Shown here: piece after piece, positions 12,309 through 18,842 of the stretch
Layout of the letters: the number at the start of each line of letters is the position of its first letter
Numbering within the stretch: position 1 is the first letter of the stretch
NCBI GenBank assembly: GCA_044359535.1
Contig: JBIKLZ010000018.1
Coordinates: 1 to 21,174, forward strand
Direction: 5' to 3'
DNA length: 21,174 bases
DNA from: Chlamydiia bacterium
GTDB lineage: Bacteria > Chlamydiota > Chlamydiia > Chlamydiales > 2-12-FULL-49-11
Notes under the pieces: generated by a model
The model's database searches: none
What the model saw: the letters and a program-made list of their open reading frames with translations, nothing else
Told to the model about the DNA's origin: nothing
Translations under genes and position numbers: made by a program

Positions 12309-12411
12309 GGGTGTGTTTCCTAATTCATCAAAAAAATATAAGTTCTAAAATGTTTCTTCATTAACAAGAAACGCATCAGATATTCTAATTAGTGAATTAG
12401 GAAACACACCC
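12309..12411 (+). mobile_element. 103-bp MITE flanked by ATC direct repeat
   Basis: Perfect 19-bp IR GGGTGTGTTTCCTAATTCA/TGAATTAGGAAACACACCC; ATC at 12306-12308 and 12412-12414. Confidence 0.9.
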
Positions 12412-12504
12412 ATCATTAACCAAAAATAAATGTATCATAAAATATATTTCAGAATACAAAGCAGAACTAAAGTTCTGGTATAAGATTTCTTCACTAAAAT
12501 CACC

Positions 12505-12534
12505 TTGCAAAAAATCATGAAATTTGTTCATAAT
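12505..12534 (+). promoter_or_regulatory. Candidate promoter of the His leader/symporter
   Basis: TTGCAA 12505-12510, CATAAT 12529-12534 (18-bp spacer). Confidence 0.4.
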
Positions 12535-12587
12535 AGTTCTATATTTTGTAGTAAATTGCAAAAATACACCCCATTTTGGAGAAACCT

Positions 12588-12683
12588 ATGAAAACATTAC
12601 GCTCAAGACATAATTTAAATCTTCTGCTTGCCCTTTCTTTTTCTCTCCATCATCCTCATCATGACGAGCATCTTGCTCACTAA
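12588..12683 (+). CDS. His-rich leader peptide (31 aa)
   Basis: GGAGAA RBS, MKTLRSRHNLNLLLALSFSLHHPHHDEHLAH*; 6 His in the last 11 codons; about 100 nt upstream of the symporter. Confidence 0.8.
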   Translation: MKTLRSRHNLNLLLALSFSLHHPHHDEHLAH

Positions 12684-12785
12684 TCACACTATAAATAAAA
12701 AATAAAATTTATAGCATCTTTTGGCTGGAATAAGAAATTTAGCCTATTAAAACAATTTTTAATATTTTATTTGGAGAAAAATAAA

Positions 12786-14147
12786 ATGAATATTTACATT
12801 TTTATTATCATGCTTTTTGCCCTTCAATTGTTCTATTGGTTCGTTGGAAGAAGAGGTTCTATGAACCTTGAGGGACAAGAGGATTATTTTTTGGCTGGGA
12901 AAAGTGTACGTTTATTCCCATTAATGATGACCTTTCTTGCCACACAAGTTGGGGGAGGCGTTGTTCTTGGTGCTGCTGACGAGGCGTTTATATTTGGGTG
13001 GCCAGTGCTTTTATATCCCCTTGGGGTGGCACTTGGGTTGATTCTTTTGGGCTCTGGAGTTGGAAAAAAATTAGCTAGATTTAAGGTGTCGACCGTAGCT
13101 CAAATTTTTGAGGTGGTCTATAGCTCTCCTATGCTTAGAAAAGTTGCAGCGATGTTATCTATCATTTCCTTATTTATGATCCTTGTGGCGCAAATTATCG
13201 CTTCAGCTAAGTTCTTAGGGAGTCTTGGAGTGAATAACACCCCTTTATTCATCGCATTTTGGGCAATTGTTATCGTATATACAGCACAAGGTGGGTTGAG
13301 GACTGTTATTTCAACAGATAAAGTACAGGCGGCGTTTTTTTCAGTAGTATTTCTCCTTTGTTTTGGATTCGTACTTTATTCAGATCCATCAATAATTGCT
13401 ATGCCAACATTTCAATTAGAAAATTTTGAAAAAGTATCCACAAAACTTTGCGGGTGGATTTTAATGCCCTTACTTTTTATGGTGATTGAGCAAGATATTG
13501 GGCAGCGTTGTTTTGCAGGTGCCTCTCCTAAAATTGTTTCAAGAGCCTCCTTTTTTGCAGGGATTATGACTTTGATTGTCTGCGTAGTCCCAGTGTTTTT
13601 TGGCTGCTTGGCAAAAACGATGGAATTAAAGATCTCTCCTGGAAGTAGCGTATTATTGACTGCTGTTGCAAAAACTACCAACCCATGGATGGCAAGTTTG
13701 GTTGGATGTGCTGTAATTGCAGCAATTATTTCCACCGCGACATCCTTGATAAATGCCATCAGCTCTAATATTACTAGCGACTTCAAGCTGGCTATTTTTG
13801 AGCAAAAGAACTCGATGCGTATTGTACAAGCAATTACATGCCTCATTTCCATTGCAGCGATATTTTTTGCGTTTTACTTTAATAATATTGTTGATCTTCT
13901 CATCCAAAGCTATGAACTCTCAGTGAGCTGTCTTTTCATTTCTATTTTTATTGCCCTCTTCAAGAAGAAAGGGAATTTCGAGGCAGCTTTTATTTCCATC
14001 CTTTTTGGGTCACTTGGATTTGTCCTATTTCGCATATATCCGATGAAAATTCCAAAAGAGGTGGCTAGTATCATCCTTTCTATGAGTGGCTATCTTATAG
14101 GTGAACTGTATGCTTATAATAAGAAAAAGGAGTATCGCATACTATGA
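12786..14147 (+). CDS. Sodium:solute symporter (SSS/PutP-PanF-like), predicted histidine importer
   Basis: DYFLAGKS, GGLRTVISTD, QRCFA and AAIISTA motifs; many TM helices; GGAGAA RBS favours ATG 12786 over TTG 12771. Substrate is inferred. Confidence 0.88.
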   Translation: MNIYIFIIMLFALQLFYWFVGRRGSMNLEGQEDYFLAGKSVRLFPLMMTFLATQVGGGVVLGAADEAFIFGWPVLLYPLGVALGLILLGSGVGKKLARFKVSTVAQIFEVVYSSPMLRKVAAMLSIISLFMILVAQIIASAKFLGSLGVNNTPLFIAFWAIVIVYTAQGGLRTVISTDKVQAAFFSVVFLLCFGFVLYSDPSIIAMPTFQLENFEKVSTKLCGWILMPLLFMVIEQDIGQRCFAGASPKIVSRASFFAGIMTLIVCVVPVFFGCLAKTMELKISPGSSVLLTAVAKTTNPWMASLVGCAVIAAIISTATSLINAISSNITSDFKLAIFEQKNSMRIVQAITCLISIAAIFFAFYFNNIVDLLIQSYELSVSCLFISIFIALFKKKGNFEAAFISILFGSLGFVLFRIYPMKIPKEVASIILSMSGYLIGELYAYNKKKEYRIL

Positions 14148-14186
14148 AATAAATAAATCACATTATGATTAGATTTATATTTAGAA

Positions 14187-14440
14187 TCAGATGAGGCAAT
14201 TACTTTTTTTGCAACTGTAGGGTACCTTTTTAAATTACCACTGCGAGCAACTGAAGGTTTTTTAAAATCTCTATTTTCTGCCTTAGAGCTATTACTTATA
14301 GTTCCTGGTTACTCTGGCGTGTGCAAAAGAATGCAAAAAATTACTCTCCCGACTCATTTAAAAAAAGGGGTAAAAATTAGAGATATAAGACTTCTGAGTT
14401 CAAGCGGTTTAAAAGTATATGGCGAGGGTGAATGAAAAAG
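14187..14440 (+). mobile_element. IS903-group transposase internal fragment (degraded)
   Basis: SDEAITFFATVGYLFKLPLRATEGFLKSLF...VPGYSGVCKRM then SSGLKVYGEGE* (IS903-type DSTGLKVFGEGEW with TGG changed to TGA). Confidence 0.85.
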
Positions 14441-14500: not shown

Positions 14501-14797
14501 ATGCACATACAGAATAAAAAAAATTGGAAGATGTTTTTAGAGCTTTGTTTAAAAACACAGAGCACTTCCCGTTTATCGGATTTATTTGATTTGTTTTTCA
14601 CGATCGAGGAAAAACAGCACCTTGCTTGTCGTATGCAAATTATTGAGGACCTTTTGGAGGCAAAGCTTTCCCAAAGAGAGATCTCTGAAAAAAAGAATGT
14701 GAGTATTTCTCAAATTACGCGTGGGTCTAACGCTTTAAAAATTGCAAGTAGTGATCTTGTAAAATTTATTGAAAGTTACCTAAGGGAGAATAAGTAA
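14501..14797 (+). CDS. trpR: Trp repressor
   Basis: WKMFLEL...FFTIEEKQHLACRMQIIEDLL...SQREISEKKNVSISQITRGSNALK, the TrpR family HTH signature. Confidence 0.93.
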   Translation: MHIQNKKNWKMFLELCLKTQSTSRLSDLFDLFFTIEEKQHLACRMQIIEDLLEAKLSQREISEKKNVSISQITRGSNALKIASSDLVKFIESYLRENK

Positions 14798-14798
14798 A

Positions 14799-14858
14799 AT
14801 GAAAAAAGATCTTTTTTTTAGATTTTCCCTCCCCTTTTGGTGGCGCTTTAAGCTCTAA
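14799..14858 (+). CDS. trpL: Trp leader peptide (19 aa)
   Basis: MKKDLFFRFSLPFWWRFKL*; ATG 1 nt after the trpR stop, GGGAGA RBS inside trpR; tandem TGG TGG followed by Arg as in enterobacterial TrpL. Confidence 0.85.
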   Translation: MKKDLFFRFSLPFWWRFKL

Positions 14859-14953
14859 TTCATTTTTTATTAAAAAATACATTTCATTTGCCATCACCGC
14901 TTTAATTTAGCCCGTTTGGCATCACTTAAACCAAATAATTCAAGAGACTTATT

Positions 14954-16327
14954 ATGATACATATCTATGAGAAAAACTATGTCAAATTTTGTTTTTCATT
15001 ATTAAATAACAATAATATTAACACGCACAATATTGAATCAACTATATTTTTAAATCTTCAAAATGCAAAAAAACTACATGATACGATTGATTCTTATATC
15101 AATAGATTAGCCTTTAGATGTAGCCTTTGTTTTAAAGTTTATATAAAACTTGCAGTAATTAGTGGGGCAGGCATTGCAGGTCTTTGTACATCTTTTGAGC
15201 TTTTAGCAAAGGGTTATAAAGTAATTATTGCTGAAAAAAGAGAAGCTTTTTCTCGCTCAAATATCATTAACTTTAACATAGAAATTCAACATTTTCTAAA
15301 AAGATTTGATCTACTTAGTGAATTTGAAGAATCTGTTGCAGCAATAATAAAGAGTCATAAAGTAATTCACATTGGAAAAGATGGTACAAAAGAGCTTTTT
15401 TTTTCAGATGTTAGCAACCTTAAGCTTAGTAACCAATCTTTTGAAATAGAAAATTTTAACACCCTTTTTAAAGAAGATGGGGTCTACAGTGCAAAGATTA
15501 AAGATTTGCAAGCATTTCTTGCTAATAAAGCTCTAGAAAATGGGGTTCAAATATTTGGAAATGTAAAGGTAAAGATCCAATCTTTGGCGCAAGTAAAAGG
15601 TAGTTTAAAAGTAGAAATAATAGCAAATCGATATTTGCAAAATCCTATAAAACTTAAGCCAGATCTGCTGTTTGTAGCAGAAGGAGCACATTCAACTACT
15701 GCAAAATTTCTTAATCTAAAAGCAAAGGTGGTTAAAAATATGTGCACTGATGAACATTGGGTTTATGGAAATATAAATTATCCAGTTGAAAAGAGTTTTG
15801 TTGTTTCTATAGTAGATACTTTGCAAAAAAATTTAAGTATAGCAAATGTGATTTTCAATGCTAAGGTTGGACAAATCAATATTGCAGTAACTTCAAAACC
15901 GTCTTTAAGTAAAAATCTTATTGAAAATAAGCTTTTAGCTATTTTAGAAAAAGTTTTTACTTTCGAGTCTATGGAGCACATTCCTAACTTTTCAATTACC
16001 ACTGTTGATCGTCCAGTGCGTGTTAGAAATCAAATGCGGAATATTTTTTCAAAAGGGAATGTTTTTTTAATTGGAGACTCAGCAGGCAACAGCTCCCCTC
16101 TTGCTGGTTTAGGTGGCACTATTTGTCTTACTCTTATTCCAAAAGCTGTAGAGCAACTTTTAAAGGATAGTGAAGTAGACCCATCTAATAAAGATAAAAA
16201 CTTTGAAACTTTTTCAAATGCTTATATTTCTAGATGGATGGGTAAATCCGAGCAAGTAAAGAGATTTTGTACCCATTTATTTGATCAAGAGCGACTAAAA
16301 GTGGGGCAATATGAAAATCAGCAATGA
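14954..16327 (+). CDS. FAD-dependent monooxygenase (group A/PHBH fold) with MICAL-like motifs
   Basis: GAGIAGL, EKREAFSRSN, VAEGAHS and LIGDSAGNSSPLAGLG motifs; about 64-aa N-terminal extension. Confidence 0.85.
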   Translation: MIHIYEKNYVKFCFSLLNNNNINTHNIESTIFLNLQNAKKLHDTIDSYINRLAFRCSLCFKVYIKLAVISGAGIAGLCTSFELLAKGYKVIIAEKREAFSRSNIINFNIEIQHFLKRFDLLSEFEESVAAIIKSHKVIHIGKDGTKELFFSDVSNLKLSNQSFEIENFNTLFKEDGVYSAKIKDLQAFLANKALENGVQIFGNVKVKIQSLAQVKGSLKVEIIANRYLQNPIKLKPDLLFVAEGAHSTTAKFLNLKAKVVKNMCTDEHWVYGNINYPVEKSFVVSIVDTLQKNLSIANVIFNAKVGQINIAVTSKPSLSKNLIENKLLAILEKVFTFESMEHIPNFSITTVDRPVRVRNQMRNIFSKGNVFLIGDSAGNSSPLAGLGGTICLTLIPKAVEQLLKDSEVDPSNKDKNFETFSNAYISRWMGKSEQVKRFCTHLFDQERLKVGQYENQQ

Positions 16328-17546
16328 ACAGCAAGGATTTTTTCTAGTGAATTTGGGTGTAGCCTTTGAGCATCTTGACATGATGCTCAGCTCTTTACTT
16401 GCTAGTTGTATTGTAAAAGAATTTATCTACTACAATAGCTATGCAACTGAATTACTTGTTGCCTACACAGCGTACGCCATTGCCTTTTTATTTAGACCTT
16501 TGGGGGCATTTTTTTTTGGTTGTATAGCTGATTTATATGGAAGAAAAATTTCGTTACTTGGGTCTATGGTCTTAATGTCTACTGCAACCTTTGCAATTGC
16601 TTTTATACCAAGTGTAAAGGTTTTAGGGTTTTTCTCTACTATTTTATTTCTTACTTGTCGTATTGCCCAAGGGCTTGCTGTTGGAGGAGAATATGGCACT
16701 GCTATGACTTATTCTTACGAACTTAATCCAAAATTACGAACATTTTATGGCGCTTGTGTAATTTGCTCCACACATATTGGAGGGCTCTTTGCAAGTTTTT
16801 TAGCTAGTCAATATGTAGAAAATTTCCGTCTAACTTTTCTTATAGGGGGATTAATCGGATTTTTTATCCTATTATTTCGCTCGATTTTAAAACAATGTGA
16901 TGTTTCTACTTCGAAAAAACTCTATAAACACATTAAAGAATCGGTAAAAAACAAAAAGGCTATTTTAAAAGTAGTGGTTGTTGCCTCTATGCAGGTTCTA
17001 GTTTTCTATGGATCTTTAATTTATGTTAATGAGCTTGTTTATCAAAATCTTTCTATTTCTCGCTCTTTGATATTTAAAGCCAATTCTCTACTTCTTGGGC
17101 TATGGGTTATTATACCTTTTTGCTTTGGTTATGCTATCGATAGATTTAATTTCTCTTATCTAAAAATAATGAGATTTAGCGCCCTTGGAGTTTTTTCTAG
17201 CGCCCCTGTTTTAGGTTTTTCGTTAACTTTTAACTCATATAAAACAATTTTATGTGCCCAAATTTTTATGCATATTTTTCACATGGTTTTTTGCCTTTGC
17301 ACTCCCCACTTTTTTGGAGATCTTTTTCATCAAAAGATACGTGCTACAGCAATTTCGACAAGCTATTCTCTAGGGGCCTCTTTTTCGGCAGCTTTTGCCC
17401 CGCTAATTTGCCATCTTAGTATCAGTTTTTTTCACACAACCTTTGCTATTTGTCTACCTTTTATGGGGGTTGCATTGGTTGCTATTTTTATTCTTAAACA
17501 GGAGGATTTATGCAAAAAGATGACTCTTTTGAACTCTACGACATAA
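16311..17546 (+). CDS. MFS transporter, metabolite:H+ symporter (ProP-like) family
   Basis: FRPLGAFFFGCIADLYGRK and RIAQGLAVGGEYG motifs; about 12 TM helices; overlaps the upstream gene by 17 nt. Confidence 0.9.
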   Translation: MKISNEQQGFFLVNLGVAFEHLDMMLSSLLASCIVKEFIYYNSYATELLVAYTAYAIAFLFRPLGAFFFGCIADLYGRKISLLGSMVLMSTATFAIAFIPSVKVLGFFSTILFLTCRIAQGLAVGGEYGTAMTYSYELNPKLRTFYGACVICSTHIGGLFASFLASQYVENFRLTFLIGGLIGFFILLFRSILKQCDVSTSKKLYKHIKESVKNKKAILKVVVVASMQVLVFYGSLIYVNELVYQNLSISRSLIFKANSLLLGLWVIIPFCFGYAIDRFNFSYLKIMRFSALGVFSSAPVLGFSLTFNSYKTILCAQIFMHIFHMVFCLCTPHFFGDLFHQKIRATAISTSYSLGASFSAAFAPLICHLSISFFHTTFAICLPFMGVALVAIFILKQEDLCKKMTLLNSTT

Positions 17547-17854
17547 AAGTTGAGGTAGTTAACAATGGATTTAAGCCCATGATATGTAATCACAAAGAGG
17601 GGGACTATTTCCTCCTTAGTGGGGAAAACTTTTCTCTACCTGATGGACAAAGCTTTCCTATTTATTGCCTTGCCGCTTTAATTCCTATTATCACAGTAAA
17701 ACAAAGATTTTGCTCCCCTAATGATTGGATCTCTACAGACCATGAGGTTGCTTGCCCTGATGTTAATTGTGGTGCCGTTTTTAAAATATCAAGGGTAGGA
17801 AAAACAACTTTTTATCACCACCTAATAACAGCTACAAGGATAATGGATGAGTAA
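17510..17854 (+). CDS. TIGR04076-like Cys-rich small protein
   Basis: ELYDIKVEV...CNHKEGDYF.LSGE...VACPDVNCG; CAGGAGG RBS; overlaps both neighbours. Confidence 0.75.
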   Translation: MQKDDSFELYDIKVEVVNNGFKPMICNHKEGDYFLLSGENFSLPDGQSFPIYCLAALIPIITVKQRFCSPNDWISTDHEVACPDVNCGAVFKISRVGKTTFYHHLITATRIMDE

Positions 17855-18842
17855 ATACATACAAACTTCAAATATAATTAGAGGATGCTGGCAGCTGGCA
17901 GCTTCACATTCTAAACAAAATAGCAGTATAGAACCTATTAAAGACGCTATCGAATGTGGTTTTACAACTTTTGACTGCGCAGATATTTATCTTGGTGTGG
18001 AAGAATTATTAGGAAAAGCTTCAAAAATTTTTATAGATAAAAAGCTGCAAATTCATACTAAATTTGTACCCGATCTTAATCAGCTGGAAAAAATTGATCG
18101 CAAATATATTGAAAATATCATCTATCGAAGTCTTGATCGTTTGCAAATAGAGAGTATCGATCTTGTTCAATTTCATTGGTGGGATTTTAAAATTAAAAAC
18201 TACTTAAAAGTGGCAGAAATTCTCTTTGACTTAAAAGCTTTAGGTAAAATACAAAATATTGGCCTTACAAATGTAAATACAAAATATCTAGAAGAATTTT
18301 CAAAATACTTTGATATTACTTGTTTACAAGCCCAAGTTTCTCTTTTTGATAGAAGAATTGAAAAAGGAGTAGGTAAATTTTGCCAAAATAAAAACATTAA
18401 GATTTTTGCATATGGATCGCTACTAGGGGGTTTTGTTAGTGAAAAATGGCTTTATAAAAAGGAGCCAAACCTTCAAGATTTAGAGAATCGCTCTTTGGTA
18501 AAGTACAAGCTTTTGATTGATGCATCTTGCGGCTGGAATAGATTTCAAGAGCGTTTGTTTACTTTATATAACCTTTCTATTAAGTACCATTGTGATATTT
18601 CATCTATTTCTATAGCAGCTTTACTTCAAAGTGGAAGGGCAGATTCGGCAATTGTGGGTCTAAGCCCCACTAATTTTAAGGAGCAAAATCAGAGTTTAAA
18701 ACATCTCCCCCTGTTAGATTTAAAGGATCTAAATGAGATTTGTTTTTGGAGCTGTAATTTGCAAGGGGATATTTATGATGAAGAAAGAGATATAAATAGC
18801 GCTCATGCAAAAATTATGAAATACAACCTTAATGCCCAATAA
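17847..18842 (+). CDS. Aldo/keto reductase
   Basis: GCWQL, FDCADIY, HTKFVP, SLDRLQIESIDLVQFHWW, IGLTN, AYGSLLGG motifs. Confidence 0.92.
   Translation: MSKYIQTSNIIRGCWQLAASHSKQNSSIEPIKDAIECGFTTFDCADIYLGVEELLGKASKIFIDKKLQIHTKFVPDLNQLEKIDRKYIENIIYRSLDRLQIESIDLVQFHWWDFKIKNYLKVAEILFDLKALGKIQNIGLTNVNTKYLEEFSKYFDITCLQAQVSLFDRRIEKGVGKFCQNKNIKIFAYGSLLGGFVSEKWLYKKEPNLQDLENRSLVKYKLLIDASCGWNRFQERLFTLYNLSIKYHCDISSISIAALLQSGRADSAIVGLSPTNFKEQNQSLKHLPLLDLKDLNEICFWSCNLQGDIYDEERDINSAHAKIMKYNLNAQ

Follow-up and report, generated by a model that had tools for sequence, protein, structure and literature searches.

In the enterobacterial hisL system (E. coli, Salmonella; Rfam RF00514), the genes that counter histidine shortage are preceded by a short translated open reading frame (ORF) whose last part contains a run of His codons, and the ribosome stalls in this ORF when tRNA-His is uncharged (available text of PMC9413887). 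His-codon leaders are presented as established for the his operons of Proteobacteria and as proposed for Firmicutes in the available parts of PMC9413887 and PMC2965389, and the former places histidine transporters of Firmicutes (hisXYZ, yuiF) under T-box(His), HisR or His-leader attenuators. Another type of upstream ORF (uORF) is represented by tnaC (tnaCAB), speFL (speF) and cruR (bfrG), where a ribosome held at the uORF end shields a Rho utilization (Rut) site, either adjacent or internal to the uORF, and the downstream gene, sometimes encoding a transporter, is expressed (accessible portion of PMC12360218). Here we describe a candidate leader of this general kind in Chlamydiales, a 31-codon ORF with a cluster of His codons preceding a sodium:solute symporter (SSS) family gene whose product contains no histidine. 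It is located in contig JBIKLZ010000018.1 of the Chlamydiia bacterium assembly GCA_044359535.1; the whole stretch of 21,174 nt that was analyzed is referred to as the window.

The locus shares with hisL a short ORF, the run of His codons near its end and its position upstream of a gene that would relieve the shortage. Unlike hisL, it has no match to RF00514, either at the gathering score in the whole window or at E ≤ 10 in the region 12400..12900, and no terminator/antiterminator pair was found here; the target is an importer gene in a genome where the his pathway was not found, rather than a biosynthetic operon; and the leader ends in a small hairpin over the last His codons and bears a long C-rich, G-poor tract. 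As in the Firmicutes systems, a histidine-uptake gene is predicted to be under a histidine-specific sensor, while the phylum, the transporter family and the RNA are different; in particular, the Rfam scans of the whole window and of 12400..12900 gave no T-box match. With tnaC, speFL and cruR the leader has in common His codons situated 0–3 residues from the stop codon (51 of 53 leaders, see below), a tract that is C-rich and G-poor by composition, and a genome that encodes Rho; the signal is expected to differ, being uncharged tRNA here and a small molecule or metal acting on the nascent peptide there. One leader-peptide attenuator has so far been proposed in Chlamydia, the putative TrpL of the C. 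trachomatis trpRBA operon, which according to the accessible text of PMC7755916 is unvalidated, atypically long (59 aa) and devoid of tandem Trp codons, with no TrpL-mediated attenuation. Unlike TrpL, the His leader has tandem cognate codons and is widely conserved. A full-text literature search, supplements excluded, returned no account of a His leader or of a histidine importer for Chlamydiota. The amino-acid supply of chlamydiae is host-dependent, and the conserved His-codon leader is a concrete candidate for a cis-sensor of this supply in the phylum.

The observation itself is real and conserved: the ORF, its Shine–Dalgarno (SD) sequence and the His cluster are retained, while the remaining peptide varies. 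That these leaders would sense His-tRNA in front of a histidine-free candidate importer is well supported by comparative sequence evidence, and we consider it rather probable that the leader acts as a ribosome-stalling His-tRNA sensor which turns on an importer of histidine or of a histidine source. In which direction the response goes, which substrate is carried and how the RNA acts as a switch are inferences. In the proposed mechanism the 31-codon ORF would be translated as a leader, its His codons reporting the supply of charged tRNA-His; upon histidine shortage the His codons near the leader's 3' end would stall the ribosome, and transcription or expression would continue into the SSS gene. 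The His-free SSS product, which could be made without histidine, would then import histidine or its direct source into an organism presumably unable to make it.

The leader peptide in the window, MKTLRSRHNLNLLLALSFSLHHPHHDEHLAH, contains seven histidines, six of them within the final 12 residues of the translation. The original prediction, made from the letters of the window, described an unannotated 31-aa uORF with a good ribosome-binding site (RBS) and the tail HHPHHDEHLAH, followed by a transporter without a single histidine in 458 residues, and all of this has been borne out (Table 1): the protein lacks histidine when read from either of two possible starts, and no copy of the exact leader peptide is present in a collection of about 15 billion predicted proteins, nor is any of the seven leader peptides looked up there (0/7). 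The source genome (G000; 1.21 Mb in 57 contigs, 92.6% complete, the window being contig C20) contains 14,350 ATG-started ORFs of 8–70 aa, of which only 12 have at least four histidines in the last 12 residues. The window leader is the sole small ORF with six, and it is one of three of these 12 that lie between long ORFs.

Histidine constitutes 2.39% of residues in the 942 long ORFs of this genome, and 1.6–3.9% in the 14 other window ORFs counted. Just two of 517 ORFs of at least 300 aa are His-free, the SSS gene among them; in the window, the nearby 411-aa transporter of the major facilitator superfamily (MFS; 16311..17546) does have the nine histidines stated in the original prediction. Given the genomic His fraction, 453 residues would be free of histidine with a probability of 1.7e-5; given the mean of the SSS family, 0.8%, the probability is 0.026. 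The other His-free ORF of this length is located in contig C35 (43903..45111), where the region of approximately 38.6–45.1 kb holds a run of ORFs of 338–672 aa with 0–2 histidines each and low-complexity N-termini.

To assess conservation, SSS orthologues were searched for in 400 genomes of the same order, with a match at E ≤ 1e-40 in 167 of them. One hundred and forty-six loci were fetched; of the 143 with a match, nine truncated at the 5' end were dropped, leaving 134 usable loci. A leader was defined as an ORF on the same strand that begins with ATG, does not exceed 70 aa, has four or more histidines among its last 12 residues and is located at most 700 nt upstream. Such a leader is present in 55 of the 134 loci, and these 55 are distributed over 15 family codes; chance would give about 0.5, at the rate of 12/14,350 in the source genome and about four small ORFs per 700 nt. 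The conservation of the His uORF among orthologues, proposed as a check of the original prediction, is thus confirmed. In two loci of the same genus (L002 and L003) the leaders end in ...LSFSLHHPHHHEHFAL and ...HHPHHHEHFAH, and the tails of distant leaders include ...FHFHHHEHLAH, ...SHHHHGHPAH, ...HSHHHHHHRSV, ...VHHHHHHS and ...HHHHRHIHSC.

In the 53 non-redundant leaders the N-terminal parts vary freely and the length from the SD-preceded ATG is 21–44 aa, with a median of six histidines in the last 14 residues and the last histidine 0–3 residues from the stop in 51 of 53. Histidine is encoded by CAT 267 times and by CAC 34 times. An SD-like 4-mer is found 4–17 nt before an in-frame ATG in 45 of the 53 leaders, as compared to 62 of 505 control ATGs (12.3%) from the same upstream regions; the SSS genes themselves have such a 4-mer in 27 cases out of 53. 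One further source of data was set aside. Locus L077 has no listed RNA data set, and the 13 runs that cover it are Logan contigs whose RNA status is a guess; of four runs compared with the locus, one spans the leader and the gene in a single contig, while in two runs from one study the contigs are interrupted after the uORF and before the start of the SSS gene, and these data are unusable as evidence. The closest SSS orthologues outside the genus (78–70% identity) belong to other family codes (f37, f32, f8 and f5), while genera of the same family show only 49–61%; this pattern hints at paralogy or transfer among chlamydiae.

Histidine depletion of the transporter follows the leader in part. 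SSS proteins encoded behind a leader have on average 0.77 histidines, with none in 30 of 53; the averages are 2.08 for those behind a uORF with three histidines (none in 3 of 12) and 1.68 for those lacking a leader (none in 24 of 65). In the wider family, represented by 129 full-length proteins from a search of 1.8 billion proteins (the relatives being non-independent), the 30 closest representatives have a mean of 1.47 histidines, with 12 at zero, as against 4.56 and two at zero for ranks 90–129. A comparison with other SSS proteins had been suggested along with the original prediction, and it shows the expected depletion, strongest in the close orthologues. Histidine depletion is a trait of this SSS clade, most pronounced together with the leader and not confined to leader loci.

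Neither hisD nor a member of the HisA/HisF family was found in the source genome, while both searches matched all 14 control genomes; in the order, hisD is above the cut-off in only three of 400 genomes, none of which is among the SSS holders. The earlier suggestion that the organism is a probable auxotroph is therefore plausible, the genome being 92.6% complete. The components of the proposed response are encoded: a histidyl-tRNA synthetase (HisRS), a single tRNA-His (GTG) and Rho (TIGR00767, 654.2 bits vs. the cut-off of 509.45).

Related leaders are found before other genes as well. A degenerate pattern for the 3' core, ...HH-E/G-H-x-A-x-stop, here called type A, has 35 matches in 33 of 401 genomes, while the reversed control pattern has none. 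Eleven matches lie directly before SSS genes; the others were studied in 20 fetched stretches and by re-reading loci L021 and L027, with the match in G140 left out. In 15 loci (among L153–L168, L021 and L027) the first gene after the leader encodes an Asp/Glu/hydantoin racemase family member (PF01177; one of the 15 is a fragment, the other 14 score above the cut-off), followed by a gene for a conserved protein, about 300 aa long, that matches no family in Pfam or NCBIfam, and the SSS gene is next on the same strand in seven loci. Type-A leaders precede a polar-amino-acid ATP-binding cassette (ABC) importer in two loci, L167 and L172 (SBP_bac_3 and permease, in L172 also an ABC-ATPase match; the fourth ORF of L167 was outside the family scan), and, in three loci (L169–L171) of genomes with no SSS match, two uncharacterized proteins and an NCS1-like permease. 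The presence of related leaders before the ABC importer and other permeases fits a histidine-supply regulon. The source genome has no copy of the 300-aa protein, the ABC binding protein or the ABC permease, and only a weak racemase-like match; there, the SSS gene is the lone gene behind the leader.

The 300-aa protein appears enzyme-like. Its 12 aligned copies have a mean column identity of 46%, and 11 of the 12 contain 0–2 histidines. The AlphaFold2 (AF2) model has a pLDDT of 87.3; the best Foldseek match in PDB is a TyrRS (E 1e-3, TM 0.33), and the best protein-atlas score, 0.82, serves as a lead only.

Three type-A or related loci have an unusual arrangement. L161 (G154:C7) carries two type-A matches 285 nt apart, that is, tandem leaders before one racemase operon. 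In contig G370:C17 a second copy of the leader tail is located 19 kb from the first (L158 and L159), L159 having neither a start codon nor a downstream ORF. In L005 (G019:C12), the 277-nt spacer between the leader and the SSS gene contains an N-terminal remnant of a racemase-like ORF (MKPRSIGIIGGAGPMAG...), which suggests that leader–SSS arrangements arose by loss of intervening genes.

In the genus Chlamydia, 17 leaders retain the peptide ...SLFSLSFRYSGRYLH (...FRYSGRYLH), while the third codon positions vary (GGA/GGG/GGT, CGC/CGG/CGT, TCA/TCC/TCT); this synonymous variation argues for selection on the translated product there. The codons CTC CAT are invariant in all 17. The leaders end in ...RYLHHHS in one group and in ...RYLHRI or ...RYLHP in most, and some species have H at positions where most have R or Y. 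Judged by sequence, the Chlamydia leader looks like a decayed His run, since the codons CGY and UAY are one step from CAY. Nine Chlamydia leaders share a strong hairpin with a U tract just 5' of the SSS RBS, with some compensatory changes; a promoter candidate (TTGACA...) in the spacer of these leaders was dropped, as the consensus fold makes it the inner stem of the conserved hairpin. Public names of the orthologues in C. pneumoniae, C. caviae, C. gallinacea and a Protochlamydia are "proline permease", "sodium/pantothenate symporter, putative" or SSS family protein. The "proline permease" Cpn0486, probably the SSS orthologue (by name only), is expressed in C. pneumoniae according to an RNA-seq table in PMC5723314.

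The leader RNA has a characteristic composition. The last 60 nt of the 53 leaders (–60..0) contain 27–40% C and 4–9% G, with C exceeding twice the G in 51 of 53; when the His codons are excluded, C is still 31% and G 10%, and a U-rich, G-poor stretch follows on the 3' side. Codon choice in the leader tails is in step with this bias: CTC accounts for 28% of Leu codons as compared to 8% in the source genome, and TCT together with TCC for 75% of Ser codons, compared to 47%. In the window the final 63 nt of the uORF contain 22 C and 6 G; among 114,840 windows of the genome, this ranks within the top 0.87%.

The terminal element of type-A leaders is a small hairpin, AUGAGC-N5-GCUCAU, with the 5' arm formed by the His and Glu codons and the 3' arm abutting the stop. 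Pairing extends to 85.3% of cells in 34 sequences, compared to 22–41% with the partner slid; the inner four pairs are present in 34/34, and one A-U pair is replaced by G-C in two sequences and by G-U in six. A smaller set of 13 type-A leaders was also examined for the terminal hairpin. The Glu codon of the type-A tail is always GAG, never GAA. The window version of the helix is GAGCA/UGCUC (Table 1). Most type-A leaders also share UUUUUCCC(N)UUUAAUUUUU within the first 25 nt past the stop, a motif that is missing from the window leader. Of the two spacer hairpins of the window, the AU-rich one retains its stem in L002 and L003 with a different loop, and the second is retained in these loci with one-sided changes.

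Hairpins with a U tail 3' of the His codons are stronger than expected, the mean best energy being –4.95 kcal/mol as compared to –3.08 in dinucleotide shuffles, a value reached in 0 of 20 shuffled sets; a rule-based terminator scan is positive in 17 of 53 leaders, with 9.1 expected. Three switches were considered. Quite possibly, though tentatively, a stalled ribosome covers the C-rich, G-poor tract and excludes Rho, as in tnaC, speFL and cruR. It is unlikely, though conceivable, that the stalled ribosome instead keeps a small hairpin, acting as a terminator or a pause element, from forming at the stop codon or beyond it, and unmasking of the SSS RBS seems improbable. Masking of the SD sequence found no support in any of three comparisons: the His/CU region pairs no better with its cognate SSS RBS than with non-cognate ones (–8.37 vs. 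–7.99 kcal/mol, permutation 0.065); RBS accessibility is 0.407 with the stall site open and 0.389 in the free RNA (Wilcoxon p 0.16, n = 51); and in 28 type-A leaders, four pairings between the pre-hairpin or post-stop tract and the RBS of the uORF or of the downstream gene gave permutation fractions of 0.27–0.99.

The reading of the leader as a His-tRNA sensor has to be weighed against a number of findings. A His-rich uORF within 700 nt is lacking in 65 of 130 orthologue loci, and 24 of the 65 leaderless SSS proteins are likewise His-free, so depletion is not strictly tied to the leader; in most species of the genus Chlamydia the His run is reduced to one His. As for the switch, no terminator/antiterminator pair is seen in minimum free energy (MFE) or consensus folds, mutually exclusive helices not having been the object of a dedicated search, and a lone hairpin at the ORF end does not by itself suffice to discriminate between a stalled and a passing ribosome. 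A hairpin with a U tail at or below –6 kcal/mol is present in just 17 of 53 leaders (8.2 expected), the best in the window being –2.7 kcal/mol. The duplex, accessibility and four-pairing tests of RBS unmasking were all negative, and shielding of a Rho tract is argued from composition alone. Finally, the 300-aa protein is structurally closest to cyclodipeptide synthases, with borderline Z-scores of 8.2 and 8.1 (VIA wide), a level typical in cases without a clear match, and judging by this model a cyclodipeptide-synthase-like enzyme would consume aminoacyl-tRNA, not supply histidine. The His attenuation originally predicted is thus supported in part: the uORF is conserved and the SSS protein depleted of His, but no classical terminator/antiterminator pair was found in the window.

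Several other explanations of the same data were compared. The leader could sense His-tRNA while the SSS protein carries something other than free L-histidine, be it a precursor or derivative that the cell converts or some unrelated solute required in starvation. The SSS gene being the last in the leader–racemase–300-aa enzyme–SSS strings of seven loci hints at a pathway acting on an imported compound, and the family models yield no substrate, with a choline transporter as the closest solved relative (E 1e-13). Yet in the source genome the SSS gene stands alone behind the leader, with no 300-aa enzyme and a weak racemase-like match only, so that the transporter must help on its own, and a polar-amino-acid ABC importer is another leader-controlled unit; we regard this alternative as rather improbable. 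Still less probable is the reverse logic, in which expression occurs only when His-tRNA is plentiful: a closely following ribosome would melt the hairpin at the ORF end, as in pyrBI-like coupling, and stalling upstream would let the hairpin stop transcription. The geometry, a single small hairpin and a U-rich tract at the stop codon, fits it, and an enzyme akin to tRNA-dependent cyclodipeptide synthases (the borderline likeness given above) would use charged tRNA. Nevertheless, the His codons are beside and inside the 5' arm, therefore a stalled ribosome would cover the hairpin; moreover, the controlled proteins are His-poor (none in SSS, 0–2 in 11 of 12 copies of the 300-aa enzyme), as expected of proteins made under shortage, and the controlled genes are importers.

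Tails such as HHPHHDEH, HHHCHHH and the conserved ...HSC end, rich in His and often in Cys or acidic residues, would also suit a nascent peptide that senses a metal ion, as CruR of Bordetella does for copper, and controls uptake of metal complexes; shielding of a Rut site by a uORF that senses a metal has been described (available text of PMC12360218). This is very unlikely, as the conserved non-His positions of type-A tails are explained by the RNA helix, in which Glu GAG or Gly GGG pairs with the third base of the Ala codon, the downstream genes encode amino-acid-type importers and the racemase rather than metal transporters, and a His-free transporter is not expected of a metal system. A stable micro-protein, e.g., an accessory subunit of the transporter, is suggested by the N-terminal half of the window peptide, basic and then hydrophobic (LNLLLALSFSL), and by the amino-acid-level conservation within the genus Chlamydia. 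Small membrane proteins are known alongside some SSS carriers. Nonetheless, the hydrophobic stretch is shorter than a membrane span, the N-terminal parts are free in sequence and length (21–44 aa) between families, and the same leader also occurs before soluble enzymes and an ABC system, which leaves this reading little room. Chance is the least credible explanation, and an extremely unlikely one: short ORFs are indeed common in AT-rich intergenic DNA, with 14,350 in the source genome, but this ORF has the single most His-rich tail among them, it is conserved together with the SD across 15 family codes, and the type-A pattern has 35 matches against none for its reverse.

The His-tRNA-sensing reading may extend further, to an order-wide histidine-starvation regulon of Chlamydiales, in which His-codon leaders would control the SSS importer, the ABC importer, the NCS1-like permease and the undescribed enzyme family, and would act by tna-like shielding of a Rho tract rather than via a terminator/antiterminator. 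The phylum would thereby gain its first clear leader-peptide sensor, present as a partly decayed copy in Chlamydia, including C. pneumoniae. Taken as a whole, this extended scheme is speculative, and some part of it is likely to be wrong. The leader marks a co-regulated gene set that includes an enzyme family without a known domain, and points to a candidate histidine importer among proteins whose public names are generic or guessed. If the reading is true, these loci are a clean natural case of proteins that dispense with the very amino acid whose scarcity turns on their synthesis.

As for the transporter itself, PF00474 (sodium:solute symporter, TC 2.A.21) matches over its full length, profile positions 1–406 of 406, with 97.4 bits against the cut-off of 22.8. 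PanF (pantothenate) and PutP (proline) share this superfamily with it, while the scores are far below the equivalog cut-offs, 73.5 vs. 328.05 bits for PanF and 38.7 vs. 515.5 bits for PutP, and the public names of the PanF/PutP type are therefore no evidence of substrate. PDB matches at E ≤ 0.001 are limited to choline transporters and vSGLT, the closest being the choline transporter mentioned above. As the family models reach only the level of the SSS superfamily, we infer the substrate from regulation alone. Histidine is a known substrate within the superfamily, since the SLC5/SSS domain of CbrA from Pseudomonas putida binds and transports L-histidine specifically (accessible text of PMC7096432). 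CbrA differs from the protein considered here by its fusion to a sensor kinase and, probably, by being proton-driven, and no sequence-level closeness between the two has been shown.

The features of the locus are listed in Table 1. The ATG at 12786 is a likelier start of the SSS gene than the TTG at 12771, which would yield 458 aa, because the GGAG sequence is positioned 9 nt upstream of this ATG and overlaps the TTG. The scan of the region for the promoter consensus produced 7 sites, with 7.3 expected from shuffles, and by itself lends no support to the promoter-like site.

Table 1. Positions of the leader, the SSS gene and associated elements in the window.
Feature	Position	Strand	Description
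Promoter-like site	12505..12534	+	TTGCAA-18-CATAAT; low confidence, location about 50 nt 5' of the uORF being the sole argument
SD sequence of the leader ORF	12578..12581	+	GGAG, 6 nt 5' of ATG 12588
Leader ORF	12588..12683	+	31 aa and stop, MKTLRSRHNLNLLLALSFSLHHPHHDEHLAH, 7 His
Pyrimidine-rich, G-poor tract	12630..12647	+	GCCCTTTCTTTTTCTCTC, immediately 5' of the His codons
His-codon cluster, proposed stalling site	12648..12680	+	six His; CAT CAT CCT CAT CAT GAC GAG CAT CTT GCT CAC
Small hairpin	12666..12678	+	GAGCA-TCT-TGCTC; overlaps the last His codons, abuts the stop codon
AU-rich hairpin	12689..12714	+	CTATAAAT-N10-ATTTATAG, then CATCTTTTGG; weak terminator-like or pause element, –2.7 kcal/mol
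Second spacer hairpin	12723..12744	+	GGCTGGA...TTTAGCC; seen in MFE folds
SD sequence of the SSS gene	12773..12776	+	GGAG, 9 nt 5' of ATG 12786
SSS-family transporter gene	12786..14147	+	453 aa, 0 His; PF00474; spacer of 102 nt from the leader stop

Between the SSS gene and trpR lies an insertion-sequence remnant, the 87-aa open frame 14169..14429 (+), which corresponds to the C-terminal portion of a DDE transposase (PF13737; 57.9 bits over profile positions 34–112 of 112). The trpR product was considered as a HisR-like regulator, and this was rejected, as it is a TrpR equivalog (TIGR01321, 98 bits vs. the cut-off of 67.25); no HisR model match turned up for it, the presence of such a model in the library being unchecked. 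The region 14501..18842 (+) is possibly a TrpR-linked cluster, devoid of trp synthesis genes: it starts with this gene and continues with genes for an FAD monooxygenase, the MFS transporter, a TIGR04076-family protein and an aldo-keto reductase.

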